From NCBI GenBank assembly GCA_964409955.1, contig CAYPEY010000002.1, forward strand, positions 17,620 through 81,619: a DNA stretch of 64,000 nt, given 5' to 3'. Positions 11,343 to 61,383 of this stretch are shown here, in pieces; positions within the stretch are counted from its first letter, which is position 1, and every line of letters begins with the position of its first letter. The notes beneath the pieces are model-generated. The model was given only the letters and a program-made list of their open reading frames with translations, was not told where the DNA came from and ran no database searches. This DNA comes from an uncultured Staphylococcaceae bacterium. GTDB lineage: Bacteria > Bacillota_I > Bacilli_A > ML615J-28 > CAG-313. A program made the translations under genes and the position numbers.

Positions 11343-11345
11343 AAA

Positions 11346-13981: not shown

Positions 13982-13985
13982 TTTT

Positions 13986-25923: not shown

Positions 25924-25937
25924 TTACTAAGTATAAT
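25908..25937 (+). repeat. Direct repeat copy A (gaaaataatcaaataattactaagtataat), covering the last codons and stop of the AlbA_2 gene
   Basis: Matches 26991–27021 with a single 1-nt indel. Confidence 0.8.
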
Positions 25938-26085
25938 TAATGTTTAAATGATAAAGATATAAGATAAATTATTTTTCATAAAAAAACTATAAATATGTGT
26001 ATTATTACTACATATAATATTAGTATATTAAAAACTTTACAAAAGAATTAACATATGATATCATATGTATATAAGAGGTGATACT

Positions 26086-26541
26086 ATGCCATTTAATCAA
26101 AATGAATATATATCAAATTTCAATAAGAATAATTATAAAATGTATCAATTTAGGGTTAAGAAATCAGACACTAATATTATTAATCATTTAGATAATATAG
26201 AAAATAGAAATGGTTATATTGTTTCTTTAATTAATACTGATATAAATAATTCTATTTATACAATAAAAGAAATTAAGAATATTATTAAACCAATTCTTAA
26301 TAAACACGGAATAACAGAAATTTATCTTTTTGGATCATACGCTAGAGGAGAGGCAAAAGAGTCAAGTGATATTGATATTTATTGTAATAAAGGAAATATT
26401 AAAACATTTATAGATCAAGGGTTACTTGAAGATGAATTAGAAACATCTTTAAATAAAAAGGTTGATATTATATTTGATTCATCTTATATTGATGAATATT
26501 TTAAAAAACAAATAATGGAGGATATGATTAAATTATGTTAG
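26086..26541 (+). CDS. mntA: MntA-type nucleotidyltransferase antitoxin (Pol-beta superfamily)
   Basis: EIYLFGSYARGEAKESSDIDIY (GS-x9-DxD NTase motif). The true start is the second ATG of the track ORF, preceded by the AAGAGGTGA RBS. Overlaps the downstream HepT-like gene by 7 nt. Confidence 0.7.
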   Translation: MPFNQNEYISNFNKNNYKMYQFRVKKSDTNIINHLDNIENRNGYIVSLINTDINNSIYTIKEIKNIIKPILNKHGITEIYLFGSYARGEAKESSDIDIYCNKGNIKTFIDQGLLEDELETSLNKKVDIIFDSSYIDEYFKKQIMEDMIKLC

Positions 26542-32385: not shown

Positions 32386-33201
32386 ATGAAACCAGAAATA
32401 TATATATTTGGTATAGAAATACCAATGTTTGGGCTAATGATAGCAACAGGAATTTTAGCTCTGACAATACTAGTCCTACATTTATTTAGGCGTCATAATG
32501 TAAGTGAATATAAAATTGACCAACTTATCATCATAACTGCCGCAAGCGGCGCAATGTTTGCTTTGGGCGCATCTTTCTTTGATGGGCTTTGGCATAGTTT
32601 ATCTGAATACAAAGTAACTGGTACTTTCAAATATGAATTTTATGGCATCACATTCTCAGGTGGTCTATTAACAGCATTTACAACATATATAATTATTTAT
32701 TATATTTTTTCTAAATATGATAGACACATGATGTTTTACTATTTAGACTTTATTGTAATTGGTATTTGTATTGCTCATGCATTTGGCAGAATTGGATGTT
32801 TCTGTGGAGGATGTTGTTATGGTAAAGTTGTTCCTGAAGGAACATTCTTATCAATGATGTATCCAACAGATCACGGAATGGAAAATGTATATCCAACCCA
32901 ACTATTTGAATCAGCATTTTTATTTATATTAACCATTATTTTATTATTTGTTATTAAGAAGAATAGAAGCGCTTGGTACTTTATTAGCTATAATGTTTTT
33001 AGATTCTTACTTGAATTCTTAAGAGGCGACAACCGTGGGTCTAGCCCATTTGGATTCTTAAGTCCCTCTCAATTCTTAAGTATTATTATGTTAATATTTG
33101 GAATTATTTTATTAATTTTTAGAAAACAAATAGAAAATTGGCTTTTAAATCGCAATTTAAAAGTAACTATCGAGGAATCAAATGAAGAACAAAACGCTTA
33201 G
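32386..33201 (+). CDS. lgt: Prolipoprotein diacylglyceryl transferase
   Basis: Lgt signature HAFGRIGCFCGGCCYGK and Y..PTQLFES. Confidence 0.85.
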   Translation: MKPEIYIFGIEIPMFGLMIATGILALTILVLHLFRRHNVSEYKIDQLIIITAASGAMFALGASFFDGLWHSLSEYKVTGTFKYEFYGITFSGGLLTAFTTYIIIYYIFSKYDRHMMFYYLDFIVIGICIAHAFGRIGCFCGGCCYGKVVPEGTFLSMMYPTDHGMENVYPTQLFESAFLFILTIILLFVIKKNRSAWYFISYNVFRFLLEFLRGDNRGSSPFGFLSPSQFLSIIMLIFGIILLIFRKQIENWLLNRNLKVTIEESNEEQNA

Positions 33202-34006
33202 TATTATTGATTCAATAGTTTTGGTGTTAGCATCGATTATACTTGTTGCTTTAATGGTAAGTGCAGCTGTATTACCAATAGCTAAATCGAAAAACTATTA
33301 TATGAAAGAACATAATAAAAATAATGTTGTCGAAATATTAAAAGAAGATACCTTTAATGGTATTAGCCACTTTCACCGAATAAATGATGAAAGAGTTCAA
33401 TGTTACTACCCAATATATGATGTAACTTGGACTGATGTTGAAAATGCAACCGAACATATAATTAACTACCTATATAATCAAGATGTTGAAAGTATGCAAT
33501 TTACAGTAACAACAAGTGAAGGTGAAGTTGAATTTTTTTCTAGTCAAGCTATATCACATATGAAAGATGTTAAAGTTTTATTCATTGGTGGAATTCACCT
33601 TACATATATAGCTATTATACTTTTTATTCTATGTTGTATATATCTAATCTGGCGAAGAAATACCGTTAAAAATAAAATATTTAAAACTTATCTTGTAACT
33701 GTTATTATAATGATTTGTTTTACATTATGCCTTGTTGTATTTGCGGCAAGTAATTTCGATTTGGCATTTGATGTATTTCATAAAGTAATATTCCCTGATG
33801 CATCCAAATATGAAGAAGCAATAACATTTACATTTTGTGATACATTAACTAATGTATTAACAGGTGAATTTTTTATGCATATCGGTTTAACGATTGGTAT
33901 TATCTTTATTACACTACTTTCTTTATCAATTATTTTAATGATTCTTGCAAAAAAATATTTGCCTATTATTTTATCTAAATATCAAAAAGAAAAGACAATC
34001 TCTTAA
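33182..34006 (+). CDS. Hypothetical polytopic membrane protein
   Basis: N-terminal TM helix, a soluble domain of about 100 aa, then 4 TM helices; no assignable family. Confidence 0.4.
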   Translation: MKNKTLSIIDSIVLVLASIILVALMVSAAVLPIAKSKNYYMKEHNKNNVVEILKEDTFNGISHFHRINDERVQCYYPIYDVTWTDVENATEHIINYLYNQDVESMQFTVTTSEGEVEFFSSQAISHMKDVKVLFIGGIHLTYIAIILFILCCIYLIWRRNTVKNKIFKTYLVTVIIMICFTLCLVVFAASNFDLAFDVFHKVIFPDASKYEEAITFTFCDTLTNVLTGEFFMHIGLTIGIIFITLLSLSIILMILAKKYLPIILSKYQKEKTIS

Positions 34007-35317: not shown

Positions 35318-37555
35318 TTATATTTTTTTATATTCATAATTAGTATATACAAAACCAACTATAACATTCGTAACAACTAGACTTAAACTAATCATCGCAA
35401 ATTTTAAATCATAACCTACATATGATATCGTATGAATAGTTCTCAAAATTAAATCAAAATCTCTTGTTACATAGTAATTTAAAATACTACCAAAAACAAG
35501 ACAAATTAATAATACCAAAGTATTTTTAATAATGTTTAACTTTAACCACCTATCATAAGAAAGTCCAAAAGTTTTTAATTTTTTAATATTTTCTTTTTGA
35601 TATAAAAAATCTAAATAAAATAAATAAATTGAAAAAAACACAATAAATATTACTAATCCGATAAACACCGCTATCGTAACATCTACTGATTTCATATATA
35701 ATGATACAACTTTATCTAAAGTAGTTTTAAAATTAATAATAAAATAATTATTCGATTGAAAATCTTTTGCTAGTTCTTCAGCTGATATATTATCATTTAC
35801 AATATAACCATTATATAAATAATCTGAATCACTCATAATAGCAACATTAGCAGTTGGATAATTAATGAATTTAACTACATAAAATTCTTCAGTATGTTCA
35901 CCTATTCTAATTGAAACAATATCTCCAACATCTAAATCACTAACATTTTGATGATATTTCGATAATATTACACTTTTTCTACTTTGATAAACTAACTTCT
36001 CATCAGTTGTCATTTCAATATTTGTATATTCATCAACTTGATCACTATTTAGTCCCAACATTATAGATAAATACATTCTATCAAGTTGGCCATTATTACC
36101 CATTTTAATAAGGTCATATTTATCAGTATTAACATATTTAGATGTTGTCGCAACAACTTCATCTATTTCTAAAAATTTAGATAAATCACCAACTGTAACT
36201 TTATAATAAGATGCTGAACTTAAAATAACAGTACAAACAATTATCATCATTATTTGAATTAACATATTATTTTTTAAAAAATTATTTTTTGAGTTAATAT
36301 TATAAATATATGTTCTTAATAAAGATGGTTTCAAAAATTTAAGTAGATATAATAAAAGATCTATTAATAGTGTAACCACTATAACTACTAATAATACTTT
36401 TAAAACAGTTAAATAGTGTTCAGTCTTTACTAAAAGCATCCCTACACATAATAAAGCGCAAATAATAAGTAATATTAATCGTATACATTTTTTAGAAATC
36501 TTTATTGGTAATCCTTTAAGTGCTAACGCAAGTGGCATAATCATCAACATTAAGAATGACTTTAAGTAACTTAATCCTCCTATAACATAAGGAGTTTTAC
36601 AATAATAAATTGGTTTAAATACATCTAATATTAGATTTGCAAAAACACTACCAAATATAGTACTAATAATAAATAAAGCAAGCCACCAAATAAATTTTAC
36701 CGATTTATAATAATTAGCTTGACTATTGATATCAAAAAACAATAATTGTTTTTTTAATCTATAATTATAAATACCACAAATTAATATTGCAACAACAATA
36801 AATAACATACTAGCAACGATACAAATTATTTTCATTATATCTGTTGTCATAGTACTTGCTAATTCTTCATCTAAAATATTTGTTACATTATATTCAGAGT
36901 AACGATTTTTAATGATTGGATAAACTTCTTTAACTTTATCATCATCTTTTAAATCTATTAATATATGATTTGAGAATTTATAATTAATACCACTATAACA
37001 ATAACTAATATTTTTACCACCAACTAAAGCATACGATCCATCAATTAAACCCGTACCTTCAATAATATCAACTACTTGATATATATATACTTGGTCTTTA
37101 ATTGGAATTGAAATATTATCATTAATATTAATATTTAATGCATCAGATACTTCTTTTGTTAATACTACTTCATTATTTAATGGAATAACATCTAATGAAA
37201 ATGCTATTTGATAGTCAGTGCTATCTGCCTCGTAAACTTGAACAAACATTTCTTTATCATCTATCTTAATAGGTAGAGCACAATCATAAAATGATACAAC
37301 TCTATCTAGTTCATCTTTATACTCATCATTTAAACTATCATATACACCTTTTGTTGAAAGTATCGTATTTGCTTTAATAGATATATCAAAGTCATTGTTA
37401 TTATAATGCATACTCTCAATATTAGCATAAGTTAAAAATCTAGGAATTTCAAATGATAATAAGCTAACACACATTGTCAGTGAACATAAAAGTAAAATTA
37501 ATAGTGATATTACCTTATTATGTAAAAAGTTTTCTTTTAATAATTTTATGCGCAT
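35318..37555 (-). CDS. ABC transporter permease, FtsX-domain, BceB-like topology (about 10 TM helices with a large extracytoplasmic domain between TM7 and TM8)
   Basis: 745 aa. The hydrophobic segment pattern is read from the sequence. Overlaps the ATPase gene by 10 nt. Confidence 0.65.
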   Translation of the reverse strand: MRIKLLKENFLHNKVISLLILLLCSLTMCVSLLSFEIPRFLTYANIESMHYNNNDFDISIKANTILSTKGVYDSLNDEYKDELDRVVSFYDCALPIKIDDKEMFVQVYEADSTDYQIAFSLDVIPLNNEVVLTKEVSDALNININDNISIPIKDQVYIYQVVDIIEGTGLIDGSYALVGGKNISYCYSGINYKFSNHILIDLKDDDKVKEVYPIIKNRYSEYNVTNILDEELASTMTTDIMKIICIVASMLFIVVAILICGIYNYRLKKQLLFFDINSQANYYKSVKFIWWLALFIISTIFGSVFANLILDVFKPIYYCKTPYVIGGLSYLKSFLMLMIMPLALALKGLPIKISKKCIRLILLIICALLCVGMLLVKTEHYLTVLKVLLVVIVVTLLIDLLLYLLKFLKPSLLRTYIYNINSKNNFLKNNMLIQIMMIIVCTVILSSASYYKVTVGDLSKFLEIDEVVATTSKYVNTDKYDLIKMGNNGQLDRMYLSIMLGLNSDQVDEYTNIEMTTDEKLVYQSRKSVILSKYHQNVSDLDVGDIVSIRIGEHTEEFYVVKFINYPTANVAIMSDSDYLYNGYIVNDNISAEELAKDFQSNNYFIINFKTTLDKVVSLYMKSVDVTIAVFIGLVIFIVFFSIYLFYLDFLYQKENIKKLKTFGLSYDRWLKLNIIKNTLVLLICLVFGSILNYYVTRDFDLILRTIHTISYVGYDLKFAMISLSLVVTNVIVGFVYTNYEYKKI

Positions 37556-38205
37556 TCTAACTTACCATTATTAAATTTAATAAACTTCTTACCATATACT
37601 AAGTTCTCCATTTCATGAGTAACTAGTACTATAGTTAAATTTAATTCACTATTTAATTTTTTTAAGATCTCCATTACTTCTTTTGTCGCAACATAGTCAA
37701 GAGAGCCTGTTGGTTCATCACAAAATAACACTTTAGGTTTATTTACAAGTGAGCGAACAATCGCCACACGTTGTTTTTGACCTCCAGATAAAGATGCAGG
37801 ATATTTATTAATAATTGATTCTAATTTAAATTCACTAATTAAACTATCTACATAAGCTTTATCAATATTTTTATTCAAATATTGCATTAACATAATGTTA
37901 TCATAAACATTAAGTTCATCAATTAACATAAAGTCTTGATAAATAAAGCCACTTTCTTTAACCTTAATGCTTGCAAAATCTTTATCTTTTAAACTATATA
38001 TATCAATATCATTCCAGTATACTTTTCCTACAGTCGGCTTTTGAATTCCACTTAAATTCTTTAGAAGCGTTGTTTTACCACTACCACTAGGACCTGTAAT
38101 GATAACAAAATCACCATCTTCTATTGTAAAGTTTTCGTCTTTAAATAATACTTGTTTACTAGAACCATTCTTATATTCACTTGTAATGTTGCTAACTTTA
38201 ATCAT
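37546..38205 (-). CDS. ABC transporter ATP-binding protein (MacB/BceA-type)
   Basis: GPSGSGKTTLL Walker A; LSGGQKQRVAIVRSL signature; LFCDEPTGSLD Walker B. Confidence 0.85.
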   Translation of the reverse strand: MIKVSNITSEYKNGSSKQVLFKDENFTIEDGDFVIITGPSGSGKTTLLKNLSGIQKPTVGKVYWNDIDIYSLKDKDFASIKVKESGFIYQDFMLIDELNVYDNIMLMQYLNKNIDKAYVDSLISEFKLESIINKYPASLSGGQKQRVAIVRSLVNKPKVLFCDEPTGSLDYVATKEVMEILKKLNSELNLTIVLVTHEMENLVYGKKFIKFNNGKLECA

Positions 38206-39659: not shown

Positions 39660-40601
39660 ATGGATTGGTATTGGTATATTTTAATTATATTTACAATTAT
39701 AATATTGTTAGTTTTATTAGCATGCTATATATGTTTTAGAATGACATTTTATACAAAAAATAAACAATATGAAAAAACTGATAATATATATCTTCCTGAT
39801 GATGAAATCTTCAATGAATTTAGAGATTTAATAATTCAAGATATCAAAGAAGTAAGATGTATGCCACATCAAGAATTTTCAATTAAATCTTTTGATGGAC
39901 TAACATTATATGGTAGATACTATGAATGTATAAAAGGTGCTCCAATAGAAATTATGTTTCATGGCTACCGCGGTGATAGTGAAAGAGATTTAAGCTCTGG
40001 AGTGAAAAGAGCATTTAAATGTAACCGTAATGTATTAATAGTTGATCAAAGAGCAAGTGGTAAAAGTGAAGGACATATTATTTCATTTGGCATCAATGAA
40101 AGACGAGATTGTTTGAGTTGGTTAAATTTTGTGATTGAGCACTTTGGAAGTGATGTTAAAGTGATTTTAACAGGTATTTCAATGGGTGCTGCAACAGTTC
40201 TTCTTGTATCTAATGAAGACTTACCTAAAAATGTAATCGGAATACTTGCAGACTGTGGATATAATAGTGCTAAAGATATTATTCAAAAAGTAATTAAAGA
40301 TATGAAACTTCCACCTAAAGTTTTCTATCCTTTTATTAAACTTTCTGCAAAACTTTTCGGTCATTTTAATTTAGAAGAATCAACTCCATATGAAGCCGTA
40401 CAAAATGCAAAAGTACCAATAATTTTTATTCATGGTGATAATGATACATTTGTACCATGTCATATGAGTCAAAAATTATATGATGCATGTACATCATATA
40501 AAAAACTAGTAACTATCAAAAATGCAAAACACGGAACAAGTTACTTAAAAGATCCAGATACATATATAACAGAACTTAATAATTTTTTTAAAAACAATTA
40601 A
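39660..40601 (+). CDS. Alpha/beta-hydrolase (membrane-anchored esterase/peptidase S9-like)
   Basis: N-terminal TM helix; nucleophile elbow GISMGAA; downstream HGDNDTFVP. Confidence 0.65.
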   Translation: MDWYWYILIIFTIIILLVLLACYICFRMTFYTKNKQYEKTDNIYLPDDEIFNEFRDLIIQDIKEVRCMPHQEFSIKSFDGLTLYGRYYECIKGAPIEIMFHGYRGDSERDLSSGVKRAFKCNRNVLIVDQRASGKSEGHIISFGINERRDCLSWLNFVIEHFGSDVKVILTGISMGAATVLLVSNEDLPKNVIGILADCGYNSAKDIIQKVIKDMKLPPKVFYPFIKLSAKLFGHFNLEESTPYEAVQNAKVPIIFIHGDNDTFVPCHMSQKLYDACTSYKKLVTIKNAKHGTSYLKDPDTYITELNNFFKNN

Positions 40602-40629
40602 AAAGTGCTACATTTTAGTAGCACTTTTC

Positions 40630-42870
40630 TTATTTTTCATATGTAAGAAGCATAAATATAGATGCAAGTTCATTAACATATAAGATATCCGCATCTTCTA
40701 CTTCACCTGTTGATTTTAAAATAACTATACAATCATCAATTCTTGTAATAATAGATGGAGTTAAAATTGATAAAACTTCTGATCCATCTTCGTCTAATAT
40801 TTGATAAATTTCTTCAACAAATCTTGCTATTTCATTCATTAACTCTGTATCAATAATACTATCTAAATATTCATATTGGTATAATAATAATTGATTATTA
40901 GTCAAACCAATTTGAAGATTTCCAACTCCTGATAAGTGAAGATTTATATCTATAATAGTTTTGAACACTTCATAATCTTCTTCTATACAATTTAATATGT
41001 TATTAATTGTTACATCATCTAAATCATTCATATATATTAAAAGAGCTTCTTTAATACAAGGTTTAAGCGTTATAAACATATCTTTATCAATTTCATTTAG
41101 AGCTTTTAAAATAATGTTTATATATTCATTAACTTCATTACTTGAAATATCAAGTGATGAAGCTGATACTTTTTGAATGAAATTATATAACGCTAAAAGT
41201 TCTTCTTCTGTATATTCTATCGTAGTGTTTTCGAGTTTAGAAATAACCAAACTTAATAAATCATCTGTTAGTGTTCCATTAAATAATACATCTATAATTA
41301 ACTGGGTATCAAGACCTTGATATTGATTCATAAATATTGAAAAATCCAATAATTCCTTTAAATCTGTTTTTAAAATTTCCGCATTATTTATAACTTTCAT
41401 ATAGTTATTTTGAAGTTTTTCAAGTTCTGCTTCATATTCAAAGTTCCTATATGTTTCATCTAACACTCCATCTACTATAACATCTATATTATAGTTTGTA
41501 TAATTAATACTTTTTAAGAAAGTTAAATTACTATTAATAAATGTTACTACTTCATTATAATATGATTTTAAAGTATCAAAATTAATTTCTGGAATAAAAC
41601 CTGTTTGTGCATATATAAATTCTTCAATGTGTAATGCGTTATTAATAGCATCTAAATTAGTAATAATACTATCGCTTGGAATTATTGATTCTACTTCTTC
41701 AACTACCTGGTCTTTAAAATTAAGTGCATTTTTAACAACTTCATCTAATTCTTCACTACTTTCAATTTTAGAAGCTTCTTCAACTATACTATTAAATTTA
41801 GATTCAAGTCCCATTAAAATATTTATAGAATTATATGTATCTTTTAATTCTTTACTAAAACTAGCAATAAAGCTTTCCACAACATTATCTAATTCTTCAT
41901 CATTATTCATATATAATGGAAGTAAGTTTTCACATCTTAACTTCTTCATTTTGTCCTCAAAACTTCTTGTAAGAAGTGTGATAGTTGAGGAATATGTAGA
42001 TTTAAAAATTGATTGATAACCTAAAATAAATTTTTCAATATCCGTATAAGTATAGATAAATTCTTCATTATTTGTTTTATTTTTAAATACTAGTTTATCA
42101 TTATTCTTCGTTACATTAAATTCTTTTAGTAATCCTTTAGATGTTGCGTCAATAACCCAAGTTTCAGCACTTTCATAACTTGTTCCAAGGACAAGCGTAT
42201 TAAACATAACAGGTACAATAAAATTTGTAAATTCTATGTTTTCGCTAAAACTAGTTATATTTGAATTATAATATCCCGATTGGATAAATACGTTATAGAA
42301 ATCTTGTGCTTTAGTACTAGCAGATGAAGATAGTTGATAATAATATTGATCTTTTAAATGTAATTCTATTAACGCATCTGTATAATAAACCATAAAAGAA
42401 AGAATTTCTTTCGTATTATCACTTTCTAAAAGATAATTGATAAATGTATCAAACGAAGAATAAATTTTGTTCTCAAATGTAGTTGCATCTATATTATAAG
42501 AATAAACTGCTATTGCAACTTGATCTTTTAATTTAGCATATCCATCAACATCATCATACCCTGTAAGTAGTTTTTCTGCTGCCGTATAACAAGCCACAGG
42601 AAGTGTTTGAAACTTTGCGACTAAATCTATCGATTTATTAATACTTGTTGAAAAATCGAATAACTTTCCATCATATATCCAACCTATAAAAATATAACCA
42701 CTCTTTTTTGGATCTGTTGAAATTTGAGAAATTGTTTCTCCTTTTTCTACTTCTATAGTTTCTATAAGTTCATTATCTACATAAAAGTTTACTGTACATT
42801 TTTTATTACAAGAAGTTATTATTAATAATAATAAACAAGAAATGATTAACAAATTTAACTTTTTTATCAT
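40630..42870 (-). CDS. Surface lipoprotein with N-terminal Listeria-Bacteroides (InlB B-type) repeat and a long Asp/Glu/Asn-rich helical region
   Basis: Signal peptide plus lipobox LIITSC. GYIFIGWIYDGKLFDF is the Flg_new repeat signature. RBS AAGGAGGG. Confidence 0.5.
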   Translation of the reverse strand: MIKKLNLLIISCLLLLIITSCNKKCTVNFYVDNELIETIEVEKGETISQISTDPKKSGYIFIGWIYDGKLFDFSTSINKSIDLVAKFQTLPVACYTAAEKLLTGYDDVDGYAKLKDQVAIAVYSYNIDATTFENKIYSSFDTFINYLLESDNTKEILSFMVYYTDALIELHLKDQYYYQLSSSASTKAQDFYNVFIQSGYYNSNITSFSENIEFTNFIVPVMFNTLVLGTSYESAETWVIDATSKGLLKEFNVTKNNDKLVFKNKTNNEEFIYTYTDIEKFILGYQSIFKSTYSSTITLLTRSFEDKMKKLRCENLLPLYMNNDEELDNVVESFIASFSKELKDTYNSINILMGLESKFNSIVEEASKIESSEELDEVVKNALNFKDQVVEEVESIIPSDSIITNLDAINNALHIEEFIYAQTGFIPEINFDTLKSYYNEVVTFINSNLTFLKSINYTNYNIDVIVDGVLDETYRNFEYEAELEKLQNNYMKVINNAEILKTDLKELLDFSIFMNQYQGLDTQLIIDVLFNGTLTDDLLSLVISKLENTTIEYTEEELLALYNFIQKVSASSLDISSNEVNEYINIILKALNEIDKDMFITLKPCIKEALLIYMNDLDDVTINNILNCIEEDYEVFKTIIDINLHLSGVGNLQIGLTNNQLLLYQYEYLDSIIDTELMNEIARFVEEIYQILDEDGSEVLSILTPSIITRIDDCIVILKSTGEVEDADILYVNELASIFMLLTYEK

Positions 42871-42966
42871 AAATAACCCTCCTTATTTTGCTTTAGTTTA
42901 TTATACACTATTTCATCTATAAAATCAAGTATAAACAAAAGGATTGCCTAAGGCAATCCTTTAATT

Positions 42967-45900
42967 TTATAAACTATTTGGTAAAATTGTAGATAATGTT
43001 ACAGTCTTAGTTGTTGAACCTTCTACATATGTTACTGTATAAGTAACACATTCAACATTAGATGGAAGAGATGTAACACGACCTAAGTTATTAATATAAC
43101 TAGAATTAGATGCAAGTGAAACTGAAGCAGAAGTTGTTCCTGTTTCATATAAAGCCATTTGTTGTCTAGTTAATTCAACAAATTCATACCAAATTTCTAA
43201 ATCATTTTCAAGTAATGGTTGAGGACAATCTTTACCTGAGAAGAAATGGTGACCAACTAAACGATTAAGTGGTAAATTAAATTGTAATAATAACTTAGCA
43301 CAAAGTTGAGCTGAATATTGCCATGTTAACCATAAATCAGAAAGTACTCTTACACTTGATTCAATACCAATTGAGTTCAAGTTACCACCTAATGAACAAA
43401 TATAACCATATGAACTATTATAATAATGTCCACCAAGATACCAAGTTGTTCCTACTAGTTTTACACCAAGACCCATATCATTCATCTTTGTATAACTATA
43501 ACCTGTTGTATTCTTAACTGTTGTTTTTACACCTTTAATATAGAAGTAGTTATCACTACCACAAGTTACATCTGTTGTATAAACATCTGTTCCAACTTGT
43601 GAAGTTGTAACACCAGATGAAGCCCATGTCATAGTTTTTGATGTACCTGCATGCCATGCGCCATAAGCAACATTTTGACAATACCAAATACCATCATTAC
43701 CTGTAGAATAGTTCCATGAAGCACCTGTACCATTAGTATTACATGTTTTATTATAAGATGCTAAGTTTTTACCACCTGTTAAAGCATATTTTGCTTGATT
43801 AGCTGCACTAGCTGCAGTTCCCATATCAGCCGCATAGTGGAATGTAATAAAGTCAACTCCACCTGTACCAGTACCTGTAAGTGTTGTTTTATTAGCAGGA
43901 CTTGATAAATAATAATCTGTATGTTCTACATATGGTGTAAATAATAATTTAGATACACTTCCAATAACATCATAATAATATTCAGGAGTACCAGCACCAA
44001 TAGCAAGATTTGTTCTTGTGAAAATACTTGTATTATTACTATCTGCAATTACTTTTAACATACCAGTTGGTTCATCATTAAATACTGTTACATAGAATGT
44101 GAAATAGAAATAATCACTATATGGAGATTGAGCTTTAATTGTTGCAACACCTTCTGATACACCTGTTACTACACCACCTGCTACAGTTGCAATATTTGGT
44201 GTTTCAGATACCCAAAGAATTTCTTCATTTGCGCCACTTTCATAATAAGCACTTAATTCAATTTGTTCTCCAGCTACAACCCAAGATTGTTCTTCAAATG
44301 AACCGATGATTTCATCATCTAAAATCCAACGAGCAATAACTGTAGTATCAGCTGTAAAGTCTGAACCTTTTGTATATTTTACATTATTTTCATCATACCA
44401 ACCAGCAAAAATATAACCTGTTCTTGAAGGAATTATTAAATTTGTATTTTGATTTATTTCAAATACTGTACCAGTTGTCGATTGAGTAACTTTACTAAAG
44501 TTAACTGTTAAAGCATTTGTTGTTGTAGCTGTTGTGATATCACCACTAAATGCAACAACTAAACCTTCTGTAACTTTATTTACATCAAAATTAGCTGTTC
44601 CTGTTCCTGCATAACCTGTATAATATACAATTACATATTCTGCAGTTGTTGGAGCATCTGGTTTAGTTCCTGTACTTGGATCAACTGGAAGAGATACACC
44701 TACAACTACATATTGACCAGTTGTAGAATCTTTTGCAAGATAAATATGAGTCCATGCTTTTGCTGTTGTTGAGCTATGTGGAAGACTATATACAAAGATA
44801 TCATTAGTATATCTTTCTGTTGTAAAGTGACTACCACCATTTGCATTATTATAGTTATTAACAACTAAAGTAGTAACAACTTCTGTACCTGTGACAGTAC
44901 CTGCAGTTGTTCCACCGTTTAAATCAAATGTTACTGTATAAGTAATTAATTCTTCCCATTGCGCATATAACACTACGTTATCAGTGCCTGATTGTTTATA
45001 TGTATCAATGTAATCAGTAGATGAAGATTTAAGAGTCCAACCTAAGAAATGATATCCTTCACGTGTAGGAGTATAAAGTGTAACATTAGTATCAACTACT
45101 GCAATTTGAGATTCATCTCCTACACCTTCATTTAAGATATAAACGATTGTATAAGTTGCATCTTCAATTACATTATAATATGTATCTGCTGCATAAGCTT
45201 GAGCTAATTGTGCTCCTGTATAAGTCGCATAAGTATATCCTGCAGGATAAGTTCCATTAGTCCAACATTCATATGAACCTGTAAATGTACAATTAATGAA
45301 TACGTTATATGCATAAGTTGAATTTGTACCTTGATATGAAGTAGTAGAAAGTCTAATAACTGAATCTACATATGTATTATATTTAATATTAGCTTTTCCT
45401 GTACAATTGTATAACATTAAGTTAGTACCTGTTGAATTAGTTATATGGTTACCAACAAATTCAATAGTACCTGTAGTAGATTTGAAGTTTTTAATTTCGA
45501 TAGAAGTACATTCTCCACCATTATAACCAGCGATTATATTATTCATAATATAAACATTTGTACAACCACTACAATCACCAAGTTCAATAAAATAATTGTC
45601 TGTTTCATCAATAAGTGTATTATTTGAAATATTAACATTACCTGTCATAGTAGTAAAGCTAAATGGAATACCAGCAGCTGAATCATTAATAGAAACGTAT
45701 GAATTAGTGAATTCAAAATTATTAACAACACTTGCAGCTTTAATGAATGTATTATCTGAATTATATCCTGTGCAACGTAAATTTGTTAATACTATATTAG
45801 AAACAGAATTAAGAGTTATACCACTACCTCCAATTGAAATACCATCAATTGTAACGTTGTTTGCTGAAATTGTAACAGATCCGTTAATTGTTGCTTCACT

Positions 45901-48399
45901 ATTTCTTGTTGCTGTACCAGCTATACCAGCATTAGGACCTAAAATTGTTACGTTAGCTACGCTTACTGTTACAGTTTCTGCGTATGTACCAGGCATTACA
46001 TAAATAATAGAACCTTCTGTTGCTGCTGCAAGACCAGCTGTAATTGTTGTATAAGTTTGGTTAGCACCAACAACAATACATTGTGCTTGATCTAATTCAA
46101 ATGATGCCCAAAGAGTCATATTACCTGTTGTGCCTTGACTAATTTGAGTTACTTTATTAGTTAACGATTCTTCTTTATACCAACCAAGGAATGTATAGCC
46201 TTCTTTTGTTGGTGCTAAGAATGTAAAGCTTGTTTCTACTGTATAAATATTAATATTTTCTTCATTTTGAACACTATCATTTAATTCATAATTAATTGAA
46301 TAATAAATTGGATCATAAATAGGTTCAAGAGTTACATTTTCTGTAATACTTGAGAAATCATAATCCCAATATGATGTATAACCTACTTTAGCTGGGATTG
46401 TTGGGATATCAGTTAATGCTTCATTTACTTTAACTGTTTTTTCGATATTACCACTTTCTAAAACGAATGTAACTGTACGAACGTTATTATTACCAATTGT
46501 TAATGTTGCACTCATTGCTGCAATTGCTTTATAGTTAGGATTATTGTGAGTAAAGTTTGCAACTACTGTATATGTACCAATTTCAGTTTGATTATTACCT
46601 GTATAAGTTACTGTTACACCTGTAGGAAGAGTTCCGCTAATTGCAAGTGATTTAGTTGTACCATCATATGAATATTCTTTACTTGCAAATGTGATACCAC
46701 TCATGTTGTATTCACCTTGTTCAATAGTTAAAGTTGCTGACATTGATTCAGGGTTATTATAATTTCCTGTAGTATCAACAAAATTAGCTACTACTATATA
46801 TGTACCAACATTTGTATTTTCATTATTATCATAAACTACTTTAAGACCTGCTGGAAGACCTGCAACCGCTAATGATTGAATGAATTGTGTATATGTAACA
46901 GTTTTATTTTCAAATGATACACCACTCATATCATAATCAGCTTTATTAATTACAAGTGTTGCCTCAAGTGCTGGAACATCTGAATAATTACCAGTTGTAT
47001 CATTAAATACAGCTTGTACAATATATGTTCCGGCATTTGTTTGATTATTATTAACATAAGAAACAGTTACACCTTCTGGAAGTGTTCCACTAATTTCAAG
47101 TGAATGAGGATTTCCATCATAAGTTACTGTTTTTCCATCAAACGTAACACCTGTAAATGGATTAGCTTTAATTGTTAAAGTAGCTTGTAAAGATGTAGGA
47201 TTATTATAGTTTCCTGTAGTATCTGTAAAGTTTGCTACGACTGTATATGTTCCAATTTCAGTTTGTCCATTGCCTGTGTAATTTACTGATAAACCTGCAG
47301 GAAGGGCACCTTGAACATAAATATTTTGAGCACTACCACTATATATTACTGACTTATCAACAAAAGTAACTCCTGACATATCATAATCAGCTTTATTAAT
47401 TGTAAGAGTTGCAGTCATTGGTTCTACTGGATTATATTCAATATAATCATGATTGAATATTGCTGTTACAGTATATACACCTGCATTTACTTGACCATTA
47501 TTTTCATAAATAACTTCGAAGAATTCAGGTAAATCACCTTCATTTGAAATTTCAATCGAATGAGCATTGCCATCATATGTTACTGTAACATCATTAAATG
47601 TAATATTAGATAAATCAAAATCTAATTTATTGATACTTAAATTACTTGCAAGTGGAGCAATACTGTTATAGTTAGGATTATTATGAGTAAAGTTTGCTAC
47701 TACTATATATGTTCCAGCTTCAGTTTGATTATTATTTTCATAAGATACACTTACACCTTCAGGTAAAGTTCCTTCAATTTGAAGAGAGTGAACTTCTCCA
47801 TTATAAGTAACTGATTTACCCGGTAATACAACACTTGACATATCATAATTAGCTTTATTAATTGTAAGCGTTGCAGAAAGTGGAGCAATAGTTCCATATA
47901 TTCCTGTTGTATCTATGAAATTTGCTGTTACTGTATAAGTTCCTGCATTTACTTGACCATTACCTGTATAAGATACACTTACACCTTGAGGTAAAGTTCC
48001 TGTAATTTCAATTGAATGAGCACTTCCATCATAAGTAACAGTTTTATTATTTAAACTAATTCCAGTAAGAGTTTGATTAGTTTTTTCTTTAATAACAAGA
48101 TTTGCTGTTAAATTAGGAATAGGTTTATATTTTTCTGTTGTATCTGTAAATGATGCAACAACAATATGTGTGCCTACTTTTGTTTGTTCATTTCCTACAT
48201 ATGTTACTGTAATACCTTCTGGTAAATTACCAGCAATATATATAGAATGAGCATTTCCATCATACTCTACCTCTTTACTTTCAAAAGTGATACCAAATTC
48301 TTCAAAAGAAAAATCTTTTTTCTTAGATTCTTTCGTACAACCTACAAAAGTTAGAAGTAATAAAATAGTAAATAAACTAAATATTATTCTTTTCTTCAT
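42967..48399 (-). CDS. Giant surface lipoprotein (about 1810 aa): 8 tandem MBG repeats, three Listeria-Bacteroides repeats, a right-handed beta-helix region, a Big_2 domain and a C-terminal split N-acetylmuramoyl-L-alanine amidase (Amidase_2/PGRP-like) domain
   Basis: Lipobox LTFVGC. Eight repeats of about 80 aa (VTYDGxAHSIEI.G.LP.GVSV.Y.GNGQ...GTYTV.ANF). GYTFLGWYKEE, GYHFLGWTL and GYIFAGWYDEN repeats. NVTIDGISIGGSGITLNSVSNIVLTNL beta-helix rungs. ANEEILWVSETPNIATVAGGVVTGVSEGVATIKAQS (Big_2). Amidase_2 motifs ITFHYAAD, WNYSTGNDGIWYCQNVAYGAWHAG, NSIGIE and VGHHFFSGKDCPQP. The true start is an ATG 10 codons inside the track ORF, with RBS AAAGGAGAAGAAA. Confidence 0.6.
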   Translation of the reverse strand: MKKRIIFSLFTILLLLTFVGCTKESKKKDFSFEEFGITFESKEVEYDGNAHSIYIAGNLPEGITVTYVGNEQTKVGTHIVVASFTDTTEKYKPIPNLTANLVIKEKTNQTLTGISLNNKTVTYDGSAHSIEITGTLPQGVSVSYTGNGQVNAGTYTVTANFIDTTGIYGTIAPLSATLTINKANYDMSSVVLPGKSVTYNGEVHSLQIEGTLPEGVSVSYENNNQTEAGTYIVVANFTHNNPNYNSIAPLASNLSINKLDFDLSNITFNDVTVTYDGNAHSIEISNEGDLPEFFEVIYENNGQVNAGVYTVTAIFNHDYIEYNPVEPMTATLTINKADYDMSGVTFVDKSVIYSGSAQNIYVQGALPAGLSVNYTGNGQTEIGTYTVVANFTDTTGNYNNPTSLQATLTIKANPFTGVTFDGKTVTYDGNPHSLEISGTLPEGVTVSYVNNNQTNAGTYIVQAVFNDTTGNYSDVPALEATLVINKADYDMSGVSFENKTVTYTQFIQSLAVAGLPAGLKVVYDNNENTNVGTYIVVANFVDTTGNYNNPESMSATLTIEQGEYNMSGITFASKEYSYDGTTKSLAISGTLPTGVTVTYTGNNQTEIGTYTVVANFTHNNPNYKAIAAMSATLTIGNNNVRTVTFVLESGNIEKTVKVNEALTDIPTIPAKVGYTSYWDYDFSSITENVTLEPIYDPIYYSINYELNDSVQNEENINIYTVETSFTFLAPTKEGYTFLGWYKEESLTNKVTQISQGTTGNMTLWASFELDQAQCIVVGANQTYTTITAGLAAATEGSIIYVMPGTYAETVTVSVANVTILGPNAGIAGTATRNSEATINGSVTISANNVTIDGISIGGSGITLNSVSNIVLTNLRCTGYNSDNTFIKAASVVNNFEFTNSYVSINDSAAGIPFSFTTMTGNVNISNNTLIDETDNYFIELGDCSGCTNVYIMNNIIAGYNGGECTSIEIKNFKSTTGTIEFVGNHITNSTGTNLMLYNCTGKANIKYNTYVDSVIRLSTTSYQGTNSTYAYNVFINCTFTGSYECWTNGTYPAGYTYATYTGAQLAQAYAADTYYNVIEDATYTIVYILNEGVGDESQIAVVDTNVTLYTPTREGYHFLGWTLKSSSTDYIDTYKQSGTDNVVLYAQWEELITYTVTFDLNGGTTAGTVTGTEVVTTLVVNNYNNANGGSHFTTERYTNDIFVYSLPHSSTTAKAWTHIYLAKDSTTGQYVVVGVSLPVDPSTGTKPDAPTTAEYVIVYYTGYAGTGTANFDVNKVTEGLVVAFSGDITTATTTNALTVNFSKVTQSTTGTVFEINQNTNLIIPSRTGYIFAGWYDENNVKYTKGSDFTADTTVIARWILDDEIIGSFEEQSWVVAGEQIELSAYYESGANEEILWVSETPNIATVAGGVVTGVSEGVATIKAQSPYSDYFYFTFYVTVFNDEPTGMLKVIADSNNTSIFTRTNLAIGAGTPEYYYDVIGSVSKLLFTPYVEHTDYYLSSPANKTTLTGTGTGGVDFITFHYAADMGTAASAANQAKYALTGGKNLASYNKTCNTNGTGASWNYSTGNDGIWYCQNVAYGAWHAGTSKTMTWASSGVTTSQVGTDVYTTDVTCGSDNYFYIKGVKTTVKNTTGYSYTKMNDMGLGVKLVGTTWYLGGHYYNSSYGYICSLGGNLNSIGIESSVRVLSDLWLTWQYSAQLCAKLLLQFNLPLNRLVGHHFFSGKDCPQPLLENDLEIWYEFVELTRQQMALYETGTTSASVSLASNSSYINNLGRVTSLPSNVECVTYTVTYVEGSTTKTVTLSTILPNSL

Positions 48400-48455: not shown

Positions 48456-48484
48456 ATTATACTACATTATATGTTTTTTTTCAA
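48456..48484 (-). promoter_or_regulatory. Sigma-A-type promoter of the giant lipoprotein gene
   Basis: Minus strand: TTGAAA, 17 nt spacer, TATAAT, about 50 nt upstream of the start codon. Confidence 0.5.
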
Positions 48485-48502: not shown

Positions 48503-48536
48503 AAAAAAAAGATCTATGAAACACATAGACCTTTTA
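48503..48536 (-). terminator. Terminator downstream of the GGGtGRT gene
   Basis: tctatg/cataga stem with aaacac loop, followed on the minus strand by T8. Confidence 0.45.
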
Positions 48537-53509: not shown

Positions 53510-54298
53510 TTAATCTTTACTTTTATTATCTTTTTGATTAAATATTATCTTTAATGCGTTTTTCTCAAGGCGTGATACTTGTGCTTGAGAAATACCAAGT
53601 TCCTCTGCAATCTCCATTTGGGTTTTATTATCATAATATCTACTATATATAATTCCACGTAGTCGATCGTTTAGTCTTGCAATTCCTTCATCAATAATCA
53701 TTTTATTAAGTCTTTTTTCTTCACTATCAACATTATCAGCAATCTGATCTATTAAATATATTTCATCTCCACCATTACTATAAATTGGTGTATATATTGA
53801 AATAGGTTCTTGAATAGCTTCAAGTGCTACAACAATGTCAATTGGCTCTACTTCTAAGTATTCAGCCATTTCTTCAGTTGTTGGTTCTAAACCTTTTTGA
53901 TTAAAATACGATTCTTTAAACTGAAGAGCTTTATATGCTAAATCTTTTATAGATCTGCTAACTCTAATAATTGAATTATCTCTTAAGTATCTTCTAATTT
54001 CACCAATAATCATTGGTACTGCATATGTAGAAAATTTTACTCCATGAGAAAAGTCAAAATTATCAACAGCTTTAACAAGGCCCATTGCGCCTACTTGAAA
54101 CAAATCATCTAAATCTTCTTTACGATTATTAAATCTCTTAACTACACTTAAAACTAGTTTTAAGTTTCCTTCCACCACCATATATCTTGCATCAAAGTCA
54201 CCTTGTTGACTTAATTTTATTAACTCTAATGTTTCATCATGAGATAAAACTCTTAAATCTTGGGTATTAACACCAGTAATTTCAACTTTATTACGCAT
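53510..54298 (-). CDS. sigG: Sporulation sigma factor G
   Basis: Near-identity of segments to B. subtilis SigG (RNKVEI.GV, LVLSV..RFNNR, DDLFQVG..GL.K..DNFD, VKFSTYAVPMIIGEIRRYLRDN, TQMEVAEE.GISQAQVSRLEK). The start is the second ATG, with RBS GGAGGA. Confidence 0.85.
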   Translation of the reverse strand: MRNKVEITGVNTQDLRVLSHDETLELIKLSQQGDFDARYMVVEGNLKLVLSVVKRFNNRKEDLDDLFQVGAMGLVKAVDNFDFSHGVKFSTYAVPMIIGEIRRYLRDNSIIRVSRSIKDLAYKALQFKESYFNQKGLEPTTEEMAEYLEVEPIDIVVALEAIQEPISIYTPIYSNGGDEIYLIDQIADNVDSEEKRLNKMIIDEGIARLNDRLRGIIYSRYYDNKTQMEIAEELGISQAQVSRLEKNALKIIFNQKDNKSKD

Positions 54299-54403
54299 AA
54301 TCTTATCCTCCAATAAAAGTATGCGTAAAATTAAAATTTTTTATGCAATTTTTAAAAATTTCTGATTTTTAAAAATATTTTTAATTAAATAAAATGTCTA
54401 AAC

Positions 54404-55114
54404 CTATGCTATTTTTACTAATGATTCAATATCATGCCTCATTTTTTCCATTATTCGTTTTTCAAGTCGAGAAATGTATGATTGCGAAATTCCTAGTAAA
54501 TCTGCAACTTCTTTTTGAGTAAGGGGTTCTTTCCCATTTAGTCCGAATCTTAAAATTACAATTTCACGTTCTCTTTTATTTAATCGATTAATAGCATAAT
54601 ATAAATTTCTAATATCTTCTTCTTCTGTCATTTTTGTAAGCACTAGTGGATCATTAGAACATATAACATCCGCAAGCAACATTTCATTACCCTCAGAATC
54701 AATACTCAAAACTTCATCTAAGGAATATTCAAGTCTAGTTTTTTGTGTTTTTCTTAAATGCATTAATATTTCATTTTCTATACAACGTGAGGCATATGTA
54801 GCAAGTTTAATGTTTTTTTCAAGTTTAAAGGTTTGAATTCCTTTTATTAAACCGAGTGAACCAATACTAATTAAGTCTTCCATATTGATCTTTGTTGATT
54901 CAAATTTTTTTGCAATAAATACAACTAATCTTAAATTATGTTCAATCAATTTATTTCTTGCTTCTATATCTCCCTCCCTAACAAGTAACAATAATTTTGT
55001 CTCTTCTTCCTCATTAAGCGGTTGAGGTAGTTGATTGCTACTATGAATATATAAACAACATTTATCCTTTCTAACAAAGAATTTATCTAAAATCTTTTTT
55101 ATTAATGTTAACAT
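54404..55114 (-). CDS. sigE: Sporulation sigma factor E (pro-sigma-E with N-terminal pro-sequence)
   Basis: LPQPLNEEEE...REGDIEARNKLIEHNLRLVVFIAKKFESTKINMEDLISIGSLGLIKGIQTF...KLATYASRCIENEILMHLRK closely matches SigE. Confidence 0.85.
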   Translation of the reverse strand: MLTLIKKILDKFFVRKDKCCLYIHSSNQLPQPLNEEEETKLLLLVREGDIEARNKLIEHNLRLVVFIAKKFESTKINMEDLISIGSLGLIKGIQTFKLEKNIKLATYASRCIENEILMHLRKTQKTRLEYSLDEVLSIDSEGNEMLLADVICSNDPLVLTKMTEEEDIRNLYYAINRLNKREREIVILRFGLNGKEPLTQKEVADLLGISQSYISRLEKRIMEKMRHDIESLVKIA

Positions 55115-55115
55115 A

Positions 55116-55805
55116 CTATCCCCCTATTTCTTTATTTAACACTACATCATATTTTATATGTTTTGAAAATGAATAATATACCTCCTTTTCAATTTTATTA
55201 ATAATAAGTTTTGGTCCAATATATATGTTTATTAAATGAGGTCCTTCCACTGTATTTATATATATATTATCTAATTCTTTAAATTCGTAAGAAAAATATT
55301 TTTGGTTTATAAACACAATAGGAATATTATTATAACTTGTAATATTACCTGTATCATAAAAACCTTTTAAATTTAAGTTACCTATTCTTATTTCCTTAAT
55401 TACCTTATTCTCTTGTTGATAACTTTGAATTAAATATAAAAAAATTATATATATCATCGTAACAAACATCATACTTACACTTCTAACATTTAATACTATT
55501 AGGCAACCAATAAAACTTAAATTCAGTAAATAAAAAATTGTCGTTTTTATAATTAACTTTTTTACATCACTACTATCAAAAGCTGTAAGTGCAATAATAA
55601 TTCCCATAAAATATCTAATTACAAAATATATTTTATAAGGTAACAAAAATAAAAATAACATTACAAGCGATAATATAAGAGCAAATGTTACTCTAATCGG
55701 TTTTAACTTTTCTTTATAAATAAGCGCAATAGTTTTAATAAAAGCATAATTTACAACAATAGTTGCCAAGATAAATAAGTCCAAATAAACAATCATATTA
55801 AACAC
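55116..55805 (-). CDS. spoIIGA: Sigma-E processing aspartic peptidase SpoIIGA
   Basis: Polytopic N-terminus plus a C-terminal domain with the DTGN active-site motif (GFYDTGNITS). Position immediately upstream of sigE. Confidence 0.75.
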   Translation of the reverse strand: MFNMIVYLDLFILATIVVNYAFIKTIALIYKEKLKPIRVTFALILSLVMLFLFLLPYKIYFVIRYFMGIIIALTAFDSSDVKKLIIKTTIFYLLNLSFIGCLIVLNVRSVSMMFVTMIYIIFLYLIQSYQQENKVIKEIRIGNLNLKGFYDTGNITSYNNIPIVFINQKYFSYEFKELDNIYINTVEGPHLINIYIGPKLIINKIEKEVYYSFSKHIKYDVVLNKEIGG

Positions 55806-55882
55806 CTCTATAAGTATACACTACTTTATATAAATATTTTGTCACTTCTTTACGCAAGAAAAAAAGTAACAAGAATCACTTG

Positions 55883-60109: not shown

Positions 60110-60146
60110 AATGTCAACTCTTTTCTTATTATAAGGGGTTATGATA

Positions 60147-60175
60147 ATTATACTCTTTTTGTCGTTTTTTGTAAA
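60147..60175 (-). promoter_or_regulatory. Canonical sigma-A promoter of the activase-fusion gene
   Basis: Minus strand: TTTACA, 17 nt spacer, TATAAT, about 35 nt upstream of the ATG at 60109. Confidence 0.55.
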
Positions 60176-60237
60176 CAAATTTTATCTTAAAAAATAAAAA
60201 AAAAGCATTTCTATTAGAAATACTTTTTTTTGTTATC

Positions 60238-61383
60238 TTATTTGAATCTATTTTGTAACCAACTAGGAACTTTAGTTTCTTTTTGTTCTTTTCCTGGTTC
60301 TTTTGTTGAACCTGTTCCAACAAATGGTTGTCTTTGAACTGGTTCAGGTTTAGGTTGTTGTGTTTGATAATTATTATAGTTTGGATAATGATTTGCAGGT
60401 GTTTCTTCAACTTTATTTACTTGTTCTTTAGTTGTATCAAAACCTGTCGCTATAACTGTAACTACAATTTCACCATTTAATTCTAAATTAAATCCTGTTC
60501 CGTGGTTAATTTCAATTTCTGTAGATGATGCATTTTGAATTTCAGTAATTACATCTTCAATTTCTTTTAAAGTAATATCTGTATCACTTGTAATTTGTAC
60601 AATAGCATCTGTTGCGCCATTTATATCCATTTCTAATAATTCACTATTAATAGCCATTCTTGCTGCTTCAATAGCTCTGTTTGGTCCACTTGCAACGCCA
60701 ATTCCCATAAGGGCAGTTCCTTTACCTTGAAGTACTGCTCTTACATCCGCAAAGTCTACATTGATTACACCAGGAAGAGCAATAACTTCCATAATACCTT
60801 GGACACCGCGTCTTAATACGTTATCTGATTCATGTAATGCTTCCATATAAGTTGTATTAGTTCCAATAACACTTAATAATTTTTCATTAGGAACAACAAC
60901 TAAAGTGTCAACATATGGTCTCATTTGTTCAATACCATTAATTGCATTTTGCATACGACGTTTTCCTTCAAAACCAAATGGTTTTGTTACTATCGCAACA
61001 ATTAAGCAACCAGCTTCTTTAGCATATCTAGCAACTACTGGTGCAGCACCTGTTCCAGTTCCTCCACCCATACCTGCAGTAATAAACACTAAATCAGCGC
61101 CTTTTAATACCTCTCTTATTTCTTGTTCAGATTCTTCAGCAGCACGACGACCTACTTCTGGATTTGCTCCAGCACCAAGTCCTCTTGTAAGTTCGTTACC
61201 TATAGGAATTCTAACGTCAGCCTTAGATAATCTCAACACTTGACAGTCAGTATTAATAGCTATATATTCTACCCCACGTATATCAGTATCTATCATACGA
61301 TTTACAGCGTTACCGCCACCGCCACCAACGCCTATTACTTTAATAACCGCTTTGGCTGAAAACATATCTTGTGGTTGATTCAT
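60238..61383 (-). CDS. ftsZ: Cell-division GTPase FtsZ
   Basis: [28 protein letters not shown] tubulin signature, [18 protein letters not shown]. Confidence 0.95.

Follow-up and report, generated by a model that had tools for sequence, protein, structure and literature searches.

A giant lipoprotein ending in a predicted zinc amidase module and its family of relatives in uncultured gut Bacilli

Introduction

What might an amidase domain be doing at the far end of a lipoprotein of 1810 amino acids? The question is raised by a gene at positions 42967-48399, on the minus strand, of a 64-kb stretch of DNA from an uncultured Staphylococcaceae bacterium (64,000 nucleotides of contig CAYPEY010000002.1, assembly GCA_964409955.1; the window in what follows). 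The gene of a second lipoprotein of 746 amino acids lies beside it on the same strand, at 40630-42870. An earlier note, based on the letters of the DNA and its translated open reading frames (ORFs), had described the large protein as a mosaic of surface repeats and a split amidase domain. It had proposed that the protein is an unusual autolysin/adhesin or, if inactive, a peptidoglycan-binding anchor, and that the 746-aa protein may be its co-factor. Both ORFs are present and each encodes a lipobox. Judged from sequence comparison and modelling, the last 357 residues of the large protein apparently form one compact unit with a core of the XlyA/PlyL-type zinc N-acetylmuramoyl-L-alanine amidase. 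With its relatives the protein constitutes a large family of giant surface proteins, so far uncharacterised, which is found in uncultured gut Bacilli.

The C-terminal amidase module

The module was divided on the basis of the family alignment and a structural model, all parts being encoded on the minus strand. It begins with a conserved N-terminal beta extension (aa 1454-1510, 43870-44040), which is followed by the first half of the Amidase_2 core (aa 1511-1585, 43645-43869), where H1521, a putative zinc ligand, and the WHAG motif (H1583) lie. The second half of the core (aa 1671-1735, 43195-43389), carrying the predicted catalytic E1680, the ligands H1717 and C1725, and K1723, is separated from the first by an inserted subdomain. 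The protein ends in a C-terminal helix and a small beta domain (aa 1736-1810, 42970-43194).

Residues 1515-1728 matched Amidase_2 (PF01510) over profile positions 5-131 and scored 38 bits (cut-off 26), so that 214 residues of the protein were stretched across a profile of 131 positions. In-silico removal of the insertion raised the score from 38 to 57 bits and gave full coverage of the profile. The Amidase_2 and peptidoglycan recognition protein (PGRP) blocks that the earlier note had read in order at the C-terminus were located at aa 1520, 1562-1585, 1675 and 1716, and that assignment is upheld. A weak match to the NCBIfam model lipo_LytA (E 0.028), which scored 14.6 bits where the cut-off is 110, was discarded.

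The closest solved relatives by sequence were Bacillus subtilis XlyA and Bacillus anthracis PlyL and PlyG. Using a profile of 29 family members, XlyA was matched with an E value of 3.7e-30 in two stretches (residues 7-85 and 86-147), which are contiguous in XlyA and yet about 95 positions apart in the family profile. This arrangement indicates that the XlyA fold has a clean insertion at one site only, after the WHAG strand and before the GGNxNSIGIE strand. An AlphaFold2 model of the last 357 residues, based on the family alignment, had a mean predicted local distance difference test score (pLDDT) of 87 and a predicted TM-score (pTM) of 0.90. When this model was compared with the PDB using Foldseek, target-normalised TM-scores of 0.80, 0.73 and 0.59 were obtained for XlyA, PlyL and AmiA/AmiE, respectively, with a match probability of 1.0 for XlyA and PlyL; PlyP100 was also matched. 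The predicted C-terminal structure adopts the Amidase_2 fold and can be superposed on both XlyA and PlyL. In neither the PDB nor BFVD did an entry span more than the core of the module, the query-normalised TM-score being at most 0.37.

E1680, H1717, K1723 and C1725 were aligned with E90, H129, K135 and C137 of PlyL, and H1521 takes the place of the first ligand. These five residues and H1583 are invariant in 98 of 98 members of the family alignment (97 of the sequences come from the retrieved genomic loci), down to about 27% identity. The zinc ligands (His/His/Cys), whose conservation the earlier note had left to be checked, are therefore retained together with the Glu and the Lys at the level of sequence and fold. 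Based on this conservation and on the model, the module is probably an active amidase which hydrolyses the bonds between N-acetylmuramic acid and L-alanine.

The inserted subdomain

The insertion (aa 1586-1670, 85 aa; 43390-43644, minus strand) was delimited from the alignment and the model as a conserved, beta-rich subdomain. It is found in all 98 family members, in which its length ranges from 81 to 139 aa. The earlier note had seen here a Ser/Thr/Gly/Tyr-rich interruption of the amidase, and the composition is as described (54% of these four residues in the large protein). It is, however, no low-complexity linker, being folded and present in every relative. With pLDDT values of 84-98, the insertion is among the best-predicted parts of the AlphaFold2 model, which argues for the module as one compact unit and not a domain broken by a linker. 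An aromatic-rich pattern recurs throughout the family (F.W..TGV...DP..P..TI..D.YF.INGxKT ... N..GL..KVVDG.YY.G.T.W).

Pfam has no model for the insertion, and a profile of the insertion alone retrieved nothing significant from the PDB sequences; the best match (E 0.019, to a FliJ chain) was judged to be noise, as was a Pfam "LCI fold" match (E 0.007, below the cut-off). Since its position borders the substrate groove in related enzymes, the insertion probably extends the recognition of peptidoglycan.

The lipid anchor and the stalk

The signal peptide with lipobox of the large protein (aa 1-21, 48337-48399, minus strand) reads ...LLLTFVG-C21. The N-terminus, MKKRIIFSLFTILLLLTFVG-C21, fits a lipobox pattern of the PROSITE PS51257 type. 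The corresponding lipobox of the 746-aa protein is IITS-C21. The genes of prolipoprotein diacylglyceryl transferase (lgt; PF01790, 120 bits) and, following it, lipoprotein intramolecular transacylase (lit; PF07314, 72.7 bits) were identified using Pfam at 32386-34006 on the plus strand, where they overlap by 20 nt. The lgt-lit pair suggests that the organism makes lyso-form lipoproteins. No lspA gene was seen within the window.

Between the lipobox and the amidase lie repeats and domains of several kinds, all encoded on the minus strand. Scanning the full-length protein against Pfam reported neither the MBG nor the Big_2 domains, both of which scored above their cut-offs when segments were scanned. 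Eight MBG_3 repeats of 73-78 aa each occupy aa 33-636 (46492-48303); they are readable directly, and the segment aa 33-259 matched MBG_3 (PF18887) with 43.5 bits against a cut-off of 25. Homologues also carry PF18887. The count of eight repeats in the earlier note, which had put them at about 80 aa, was thus accurate. The first 640 aa of the protein resemble hundreds of MBG-repeat proteins at 30-50% identity, and these dominated a homologue search with the full-length sequence; the true family was retrieved when the last 357 aa alone were used as the query.

Flg_new (Listeria-Bacteroides) repeats are found at three places. Two repeats lie at aa 638-768 (46096-46488), of which the first was read directly, the best Pfam stretch being aa 700-765. 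Another, recognised by Pfam and by direct reading, is at aa 1083-1149 (44953-45153). Two further Flg_new stretches at aa 1153-1358 (44326-44943) form one repeat split by a domain of about 125 aa without a family match. This composite unit recurs in many relatives at 25-35% identity. In the full-length scan Flg_new (PF09479) scored 90 bits (9.8e-26; cut-off 27) and the NCBIfam Listeria-Bacteroides repeat model TIGR02543 scored 67.5 bits.

The segment at aa 770-1075 (45175-46092) was assigned with moderate confidence to a right-handed parallel beta-helix, based on the fold of its model and on Foldseek. It matched no Pfam family at E values up to 10, and a word-index homologue search with it found nothing. 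The model, built from a two-sequence alignment with the orthologue P0017, had a pLDDT of 71 and a pTM of 0.76 and was good across about 250 residues. All top Foldseek matches were right-handed parallel beta-helices (best E 2e-5, TM-score about 0.5), including pectin methylesterases, phage tail fibres and the PfbA adhesin. The beta-helix proposed in the earlier note is hence supported as a fold, but membership of a pectate-lyase-type Pfam profile was not found. The module recurs in family members. The stalk closes with a Big_2 Ig-like domain, also named previously, at aa ~1365-1441 (44077-44307). Its Pfam core, aa 1377-1423, was detected in the segment aa 1359-1460, where Big_2 (PF02368) scored 25.7 bits against a cut-off of 22.8; relatives reach 99.9 bits.

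Transcription of the large gene

The large gene starts at ATG 48399, preceded by the ribosome-binding site AAAGGAG; the ORF as delimited mechanically begins at a TTG 10 codons upstream. Its frame of 5.4 kb, in DNA of 27-31% GC within a window of 22-34% GC, is intact, which excludes chance as its origin. Public collections contain the identical protein, which is also encoded by an independent Logan contig. Based on sequence, a sigma-70-type promoter-like site (TTGAAA-17-TATAAT, 11 of 12 matches) was tentatively identified at 48456-48484 on the minus strand. It comes after the terminator of the upstream GGGtGRT gene (48507-48535). At the 3' end of the gene lies a hairpin resembling an intrinsic terminator (42938-42962, minus strand), with an 11-bp stem and then a T run. 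The promoter-like site and the flanking terminators suggest vegetative, monocistronic expression.

The family of relatives

Scanning one genome per GTDB species, 306 loci were found to encode the C-terminal module, of which 78 were retrieved. The source genome of the window is not among the species representatives, the best match being 70% identical. The hosts of the 78 loci are gut metagenome-assembled genomes labelled Bacilli bacterium, Erysipelotrichaceae, Coprobacillus sp. CAG:698, Staphylococcus sp. CAG:324 and "Mollicutes", from samples of goat, sheep, deer, buffalo and human gut. The ORFs that bear the module are 358-3178 aa long if complete (median 1234), and incomplete ones reach at least 3713 aa. 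The module is C-terminal in the relatives and is mostly preceded by Big_2.

A lipobox-like N-terminus was present in 57 of the 71 complete ORFs. Seven others have ordinary signal peptides, two of them with a dockerin-like segment (GDLNSDGVVDTSDVIYLL) near the N-terminus, and a few short ones have no signal. Ordinary cleaved signal peptides in place of lipoboxes were noted, for example, in the relatives at L014 5631-9353 and L018 7724-11038. The module also stands alone, in proteins of 358-361 aa without a signal peptide (L044 11715-12797 and L047 166-1239), which possibly represent an ancestral or intracellular form.

The family genes are often in tandem, with at least 3-8 copies in a single assembly. 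Loci L002 and L005 hold two to three tandem paralogues with near-identical N-termini. One member of 2998 aa is encoded on a 557-kb scaffold labelled Prevotella sp. (L048, JAMPDF010000001.1); its N-terminus is nearly identical to those of members from Staphylococcus sp. CAG:324 and "Mollicutes" UMGS116 (L028, L031), and the genome is probably mislabelled or mis-binned.

Clustering of the 583 neighbouring ORFs from the 78 loci gave no conserved neighbour gene, only housekeeping synteny shared by at most 9 loci. No tblastn match was found among 50,697 phage genomes, and IMG/VR gave one partial match to the family. The nearest viral relatives were the PHROG lysis families, with E values of 1e-12 to 1e-9. 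No paper describing this architecture or family was found in the literature.

Comparison with known systems

XlyA of B. subtilis PBSX (3HMB/3RDR) and PlyL and PlyG of a prophage and a phage of B. anthracis (1YB0/2AR3 and 2L47) have the same fold and the same Glu-type catalytic set. They are cytoplasmic phage lysins of 155-165 aa with a C-terminal wall-binding domain, whereas the large protein has a core enlarged by the 85-aa insertion and by N- and C-terminal extensions to 357 aa in total, placed at the end of a secreted lipoprotein of 1810 aa with no phage context. AmpDh2 of Pseudomonas aeruginosa (E 3e-6) and AmiD of Escherichia coli (E 4e-3) were also matched by the family profile. Both are lipid-anchored zinc amidases. 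They are, however, Gram-negative outer-membrane lipoproteins of about 260 aa with neither a stalk nor such an insertion, and their catalytic domain lies beside the anchor and faces the periplasmic wall.

Amidase_2 is likewise fused to repeat modules in the staphylococcal proteins Atl (AmiA/AmiE), Aas and Aae, in Listeria Ami and in pneumococcal LytA, and a dual role as wall hydrolase and adhesin is established for several Gram-positive autolysin/adhesins. In those proteins the catalytic domain precedes the wall-binding repeats (GW, R repeats or choline-binding), attachment is non-covalent and there is no lipid anchor. The order is reversed in the large protein, with the lipid anchor first, then an adhesin-type stalk of MBG, Flg_new and beta-helix modules, and the amidase last; it also has many paralogues. 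The repeat vocabulary is shared with giant MBG/Flg_new/BspA-type proteins of gut Firmicutes and Bacteroidota, most of which lack an amidase and have heads of the leucine-rich repeat/BspA or another kind. Of the 120 top matches listed, only P0001, which is the large protein itself, and P0017 join these repeats to Amidase_2.

An organisational analogy, with no sequence relationship, is offered by the Cwp proteins of Clostridioides difficile, in which many paralogues have in common one constant module, directed at the wall, to which variable functional regions are attached. Amidases occur among the Cwp proteins. There the constant module consists of three CWB2 repeats that are not catalytic, and an amidase belongs to the variable part, whereas here the amidase is itself the constant module. 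Although the components are familiar, no described counterpart was found for the 357-aa module with its insertion, for the reversed order or for the expansion into giant paralogues.

The adjacent 746-aa lipoprotein

The gene at 40630-42870 (minus strand) encodes one Flg_new repeat (31.9 bits, cut-off 27, Pfam) and an acidic body without a family match; there was no NCBIfam match. Listeria-Bacteroides repeats are hence present in both lipoproteins, as had been claimed. The body has an isoelectric point (pI) of 4.2 and contains 26% Glu, Asp and Asn, in line with the earlier description of it as rich in these residues. The gene has its own promoter (TTGATT-17-TATAAT, 42900-42928) and ribosome-binding site, and its own terminator at 40600-40629. 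The two lipoprotein genes, between which lie a terminator and a separate promoter, are therefore separate transcription units.

No homologue of the body was found in the 78 related loci. One of these, L018, shares synteny with the window (identities of 51% for the alpha/beta hydrolase and 67% for the acyltransferase) and has a family gene in the same place, and a lipoprotein of the 746-aa type is absent from it. About three full-length relatives were found among 1.8 billion representatives, all other matches being to the Flg_new repeat only. The best relative, P0175 (30% identity; locus L082), is encoded directly upstream of an ATP-binding cassette (ABC) ATPase (63%) and an FtsX-type permease (36%), the counterparts of which lie at 35318-38205 in the window. 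On its metagenome contig P0175 comes after a two-component system and a trypsin-like protease. No amidase lipoprotein was found near it. The proposal that the 746-aa protein is a co-factor of the large one is contradicted by its own promoter and terminator, its absence from the 78 loci and the position of P0175 beside an ABC transporter; functionally, it may belong with the ABC transporter.

The host and its cell wall

The window contains ftsZ, a gene of 1431 aa resembling BcrAD_BadFG/DUF2229 CoA-enzyme activases, spoIIGA, and sigE-like and sigG-like genes, at 53510-61383 on the minus strand. The arrangement of ftsZ, spoIIGA, sigE and sigG is a hallmark of a sporulating, walled Firmicute. The large activase gene lies between ftsZ and the sporulation sigma cluster. 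A wall-less host, considered in view of the low GC content and the labels "Mollicutes" and "Acholeplasmatales" of some hosts, finds no support for this window, given these genes and the class B penicillin-binding protein of a related genome, which is encoded with mraW beside a family gene (L046).

The related uncultured orders RFN20, RF39 and ML615J-28 (the latter including family CAG-698) have been the subject of a comparative study (PMC10868615). Sortases were reported absent from RFN20 and ML615J-28, and the related orders have lost many penicillin-binding proteins and lyt/cwl hydrolases (PMC10868615). Their peptidoglycan belongs to the m-DAP (meso-diaminopimelic acid) type with incomplete precursor pathways, and they may need scavenged muropeptides (PMC10868615). 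The m-DAP type is the one attacked by XlyA and PlyL.

Proposed function and alternatives

The preferred reading, which remains tentative and is held at slightly under even confidence, is that the large protein is an active, lipid-tethered autolysin and adhesin acting on the wall of its own producer. After export the protein would be lipidated at Cys21 by Lgt and probably turned to the lyso-form by Lit, and the mature protein would stay fixed to the outer face of the membrane through its N-terminal lipid. The beta-rich modules of adhesin type (eight MBG, about five Flg_new, the beta-helix and Big_2), about 1,400 residues in all, would carry the C-terminus through and beyond the wall, spanning 50-60 nm if fully extended, as estimated from the domain count. 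There, with zinc held by H1521, H1717 and C1725, and with E1680 acting as general base with the help of K1723, the module would cleave stem peptides off the glycan strands at the outer face or the septum, for turnover and for the separation of daughter cells. The module would also provide a second hold on the wall and the variable stalk would mediate adhesion, each gene of the family being an independent, vegetatively expressed unit. That the producer's own wall is the main substrate is a possibility on which somewhat greater doubt rests. An autolysin/adhesin, as first suggested in the earlier note, is still the best description, but the protein is not singular, with 306 loci and several paralogues per genome.

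Several observations weigh against this reading. Reaching the producer's own wall does not require a stalk as long as about 1,400 residues, and a genome with several paralogues whose giant stalks are hypervariable is more typical of families of adhesins or antagonism proteins than of housekeeping autolysins. Tethering to the membrane is not obligatory for the amidase module, as some relatives have cleaved signals, no signal or dockerin-like segments. With a pI of about 6 the catalytic module is close to neutral, unlike the cationic lysins that are self-sufficient. Lastly, residue 1563 (codon 43711-43713) is Asn, in an S-W-N-Y strand, at a position where 94 of the 98 aligned members, including the closest relatives, have His (SWHY), and the Asn was seen in the large protein alone. 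PGRPs have Asn at the equivalent position, so the replacement may be tolerated.

Part of this evidence would fit a tethered exolysin, in which the putative binding stalk attaches to neighbouring cells or wall debris and the amidase strips foreign peptidoglycan, either killing or weakening competitors or harvesting muropeptides and peptides. Such a role is compatible with the invariant catalytic residues and with an amidase at the tip of a stalk that, by the domain count, would project past the producer's wall. Variable adhesin-like N-termini on a constant catalytic end, in at least 3-8 paralogues per genome, moreover correspond to the way in which targeted lysins are organised, secreted members and members with dockerin-like segments occur, and the related orders are predicted to be incomplete in peptidoglycan precursors and to need muropeptides (PMC10868615). 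Nevertheless, the role is considered unlikely: the 78 loci have no conserved immunity, transporter or recycling neighbour, the hosts examined are walled, and enzymes of the XlyA type would cut their own m-DAP wall as well. The wider proposal, of a lineage-specific system in which sortase-less gut Bacilli with reduced genomes deploy dozens of tethered, contact-dependent exolysins with variable targeting stalks for antagonism and muropeptide supply, is similarly improbable. Equally hard to favour is a sortase-independent wall anchor, in which the module would mainly bind peptidoglycan with little or no turnover and the lipid would serve export and hold on the membrane. Sortases are reported absent in RFN20 and ML615J-28 (PMC10868615), and for retention those relatives whose signal is cleavable and not that of a lipoprotein would depend on the module. 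The conserved aromatic-rich insertion could add a glycan-binding surface. A constant C-terminal module on variable regions also mirrors the CWB2, SLH and GW families, although non-covalent anchors of that kind usually have tandem repeats and here there is a single module. An inactive, binding-only protein, the alternative left by the earlier note, is disfavoured by the conservation of the five catalytic residues in 98 of 98 members and by the score of the spliced core as a full-length Amidase_2; in non-catalytic PGRPs, which have the same fold and only bind, the Cys ligand is typically lost.

Among solved structures and profiles, the module is closest to phage or prophage lysins (XlyA, PlyL, PlyG and the PHROG lysis families), which might point to an endolysin domain captured from a prophage, or to an artefact of assembly or annotation, without a cellular role. 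This explanation is effectively refuted by the intact frame of 5.4 kb with promoter, ribosome-binding site and terminator, by the identical protein on an independent assembly, by the 306 cellular loci as opposed to no match in 50,697 phage genomes and one partial match in IMG/VR, and by the housekeeping nature of the flanking genes.

Other genes in the window

A long run of glycosyltransferase-like genes at 557-16320 (minus strand), in which the genes checked were those of an EpsG-family polymerase (7151-8305), an Acyl_transf_3 protein (15286-16320) and an APH-family kinase, appears to be a surface polysaccharide locus. At 17539-19289 (minus strand), an AbiEii-type nucleotidyltransferase toxin (PF08843, 89.7 bits) is encoded together with an overlapping upstream ORF of 198 aa. 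This ORF, which has no Pfam match, occupies the position of the AbiEi antitoxin. Genes for a Schlafen AlbA_2/HATPase_c_4/HTH protein and a Polbeta-type nucleotidyltransferase were identified at 24538-26541 on the plus strand, opposite to most genes, and adjoin a tRNA-Arg(CCT) gene at 24191-24265. They may form a small defence or mobile islet.

Significance

Seen within the window, the large protein conforms well to an enzyme family that is readily recognised, and the surprise is a moderate one. Its module is a structurally new variant of Amidase_2, and the insertion may set the substrate specificity, which would be relevant to lysin engineering. If the module is active, the usual Gram-positive layout, consisting of secreted amidases with C-terminal wall-binding repeats and of sortase-anchored adhesins, would be replaced here by one expanded family. 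That family would then be a candidate for both wall remodelling and adhesin display in lineages reported to be without sortases and many classical autolysins, and would offer a testable link to the muropeptide-scavenging dependence proposed for these lineages.

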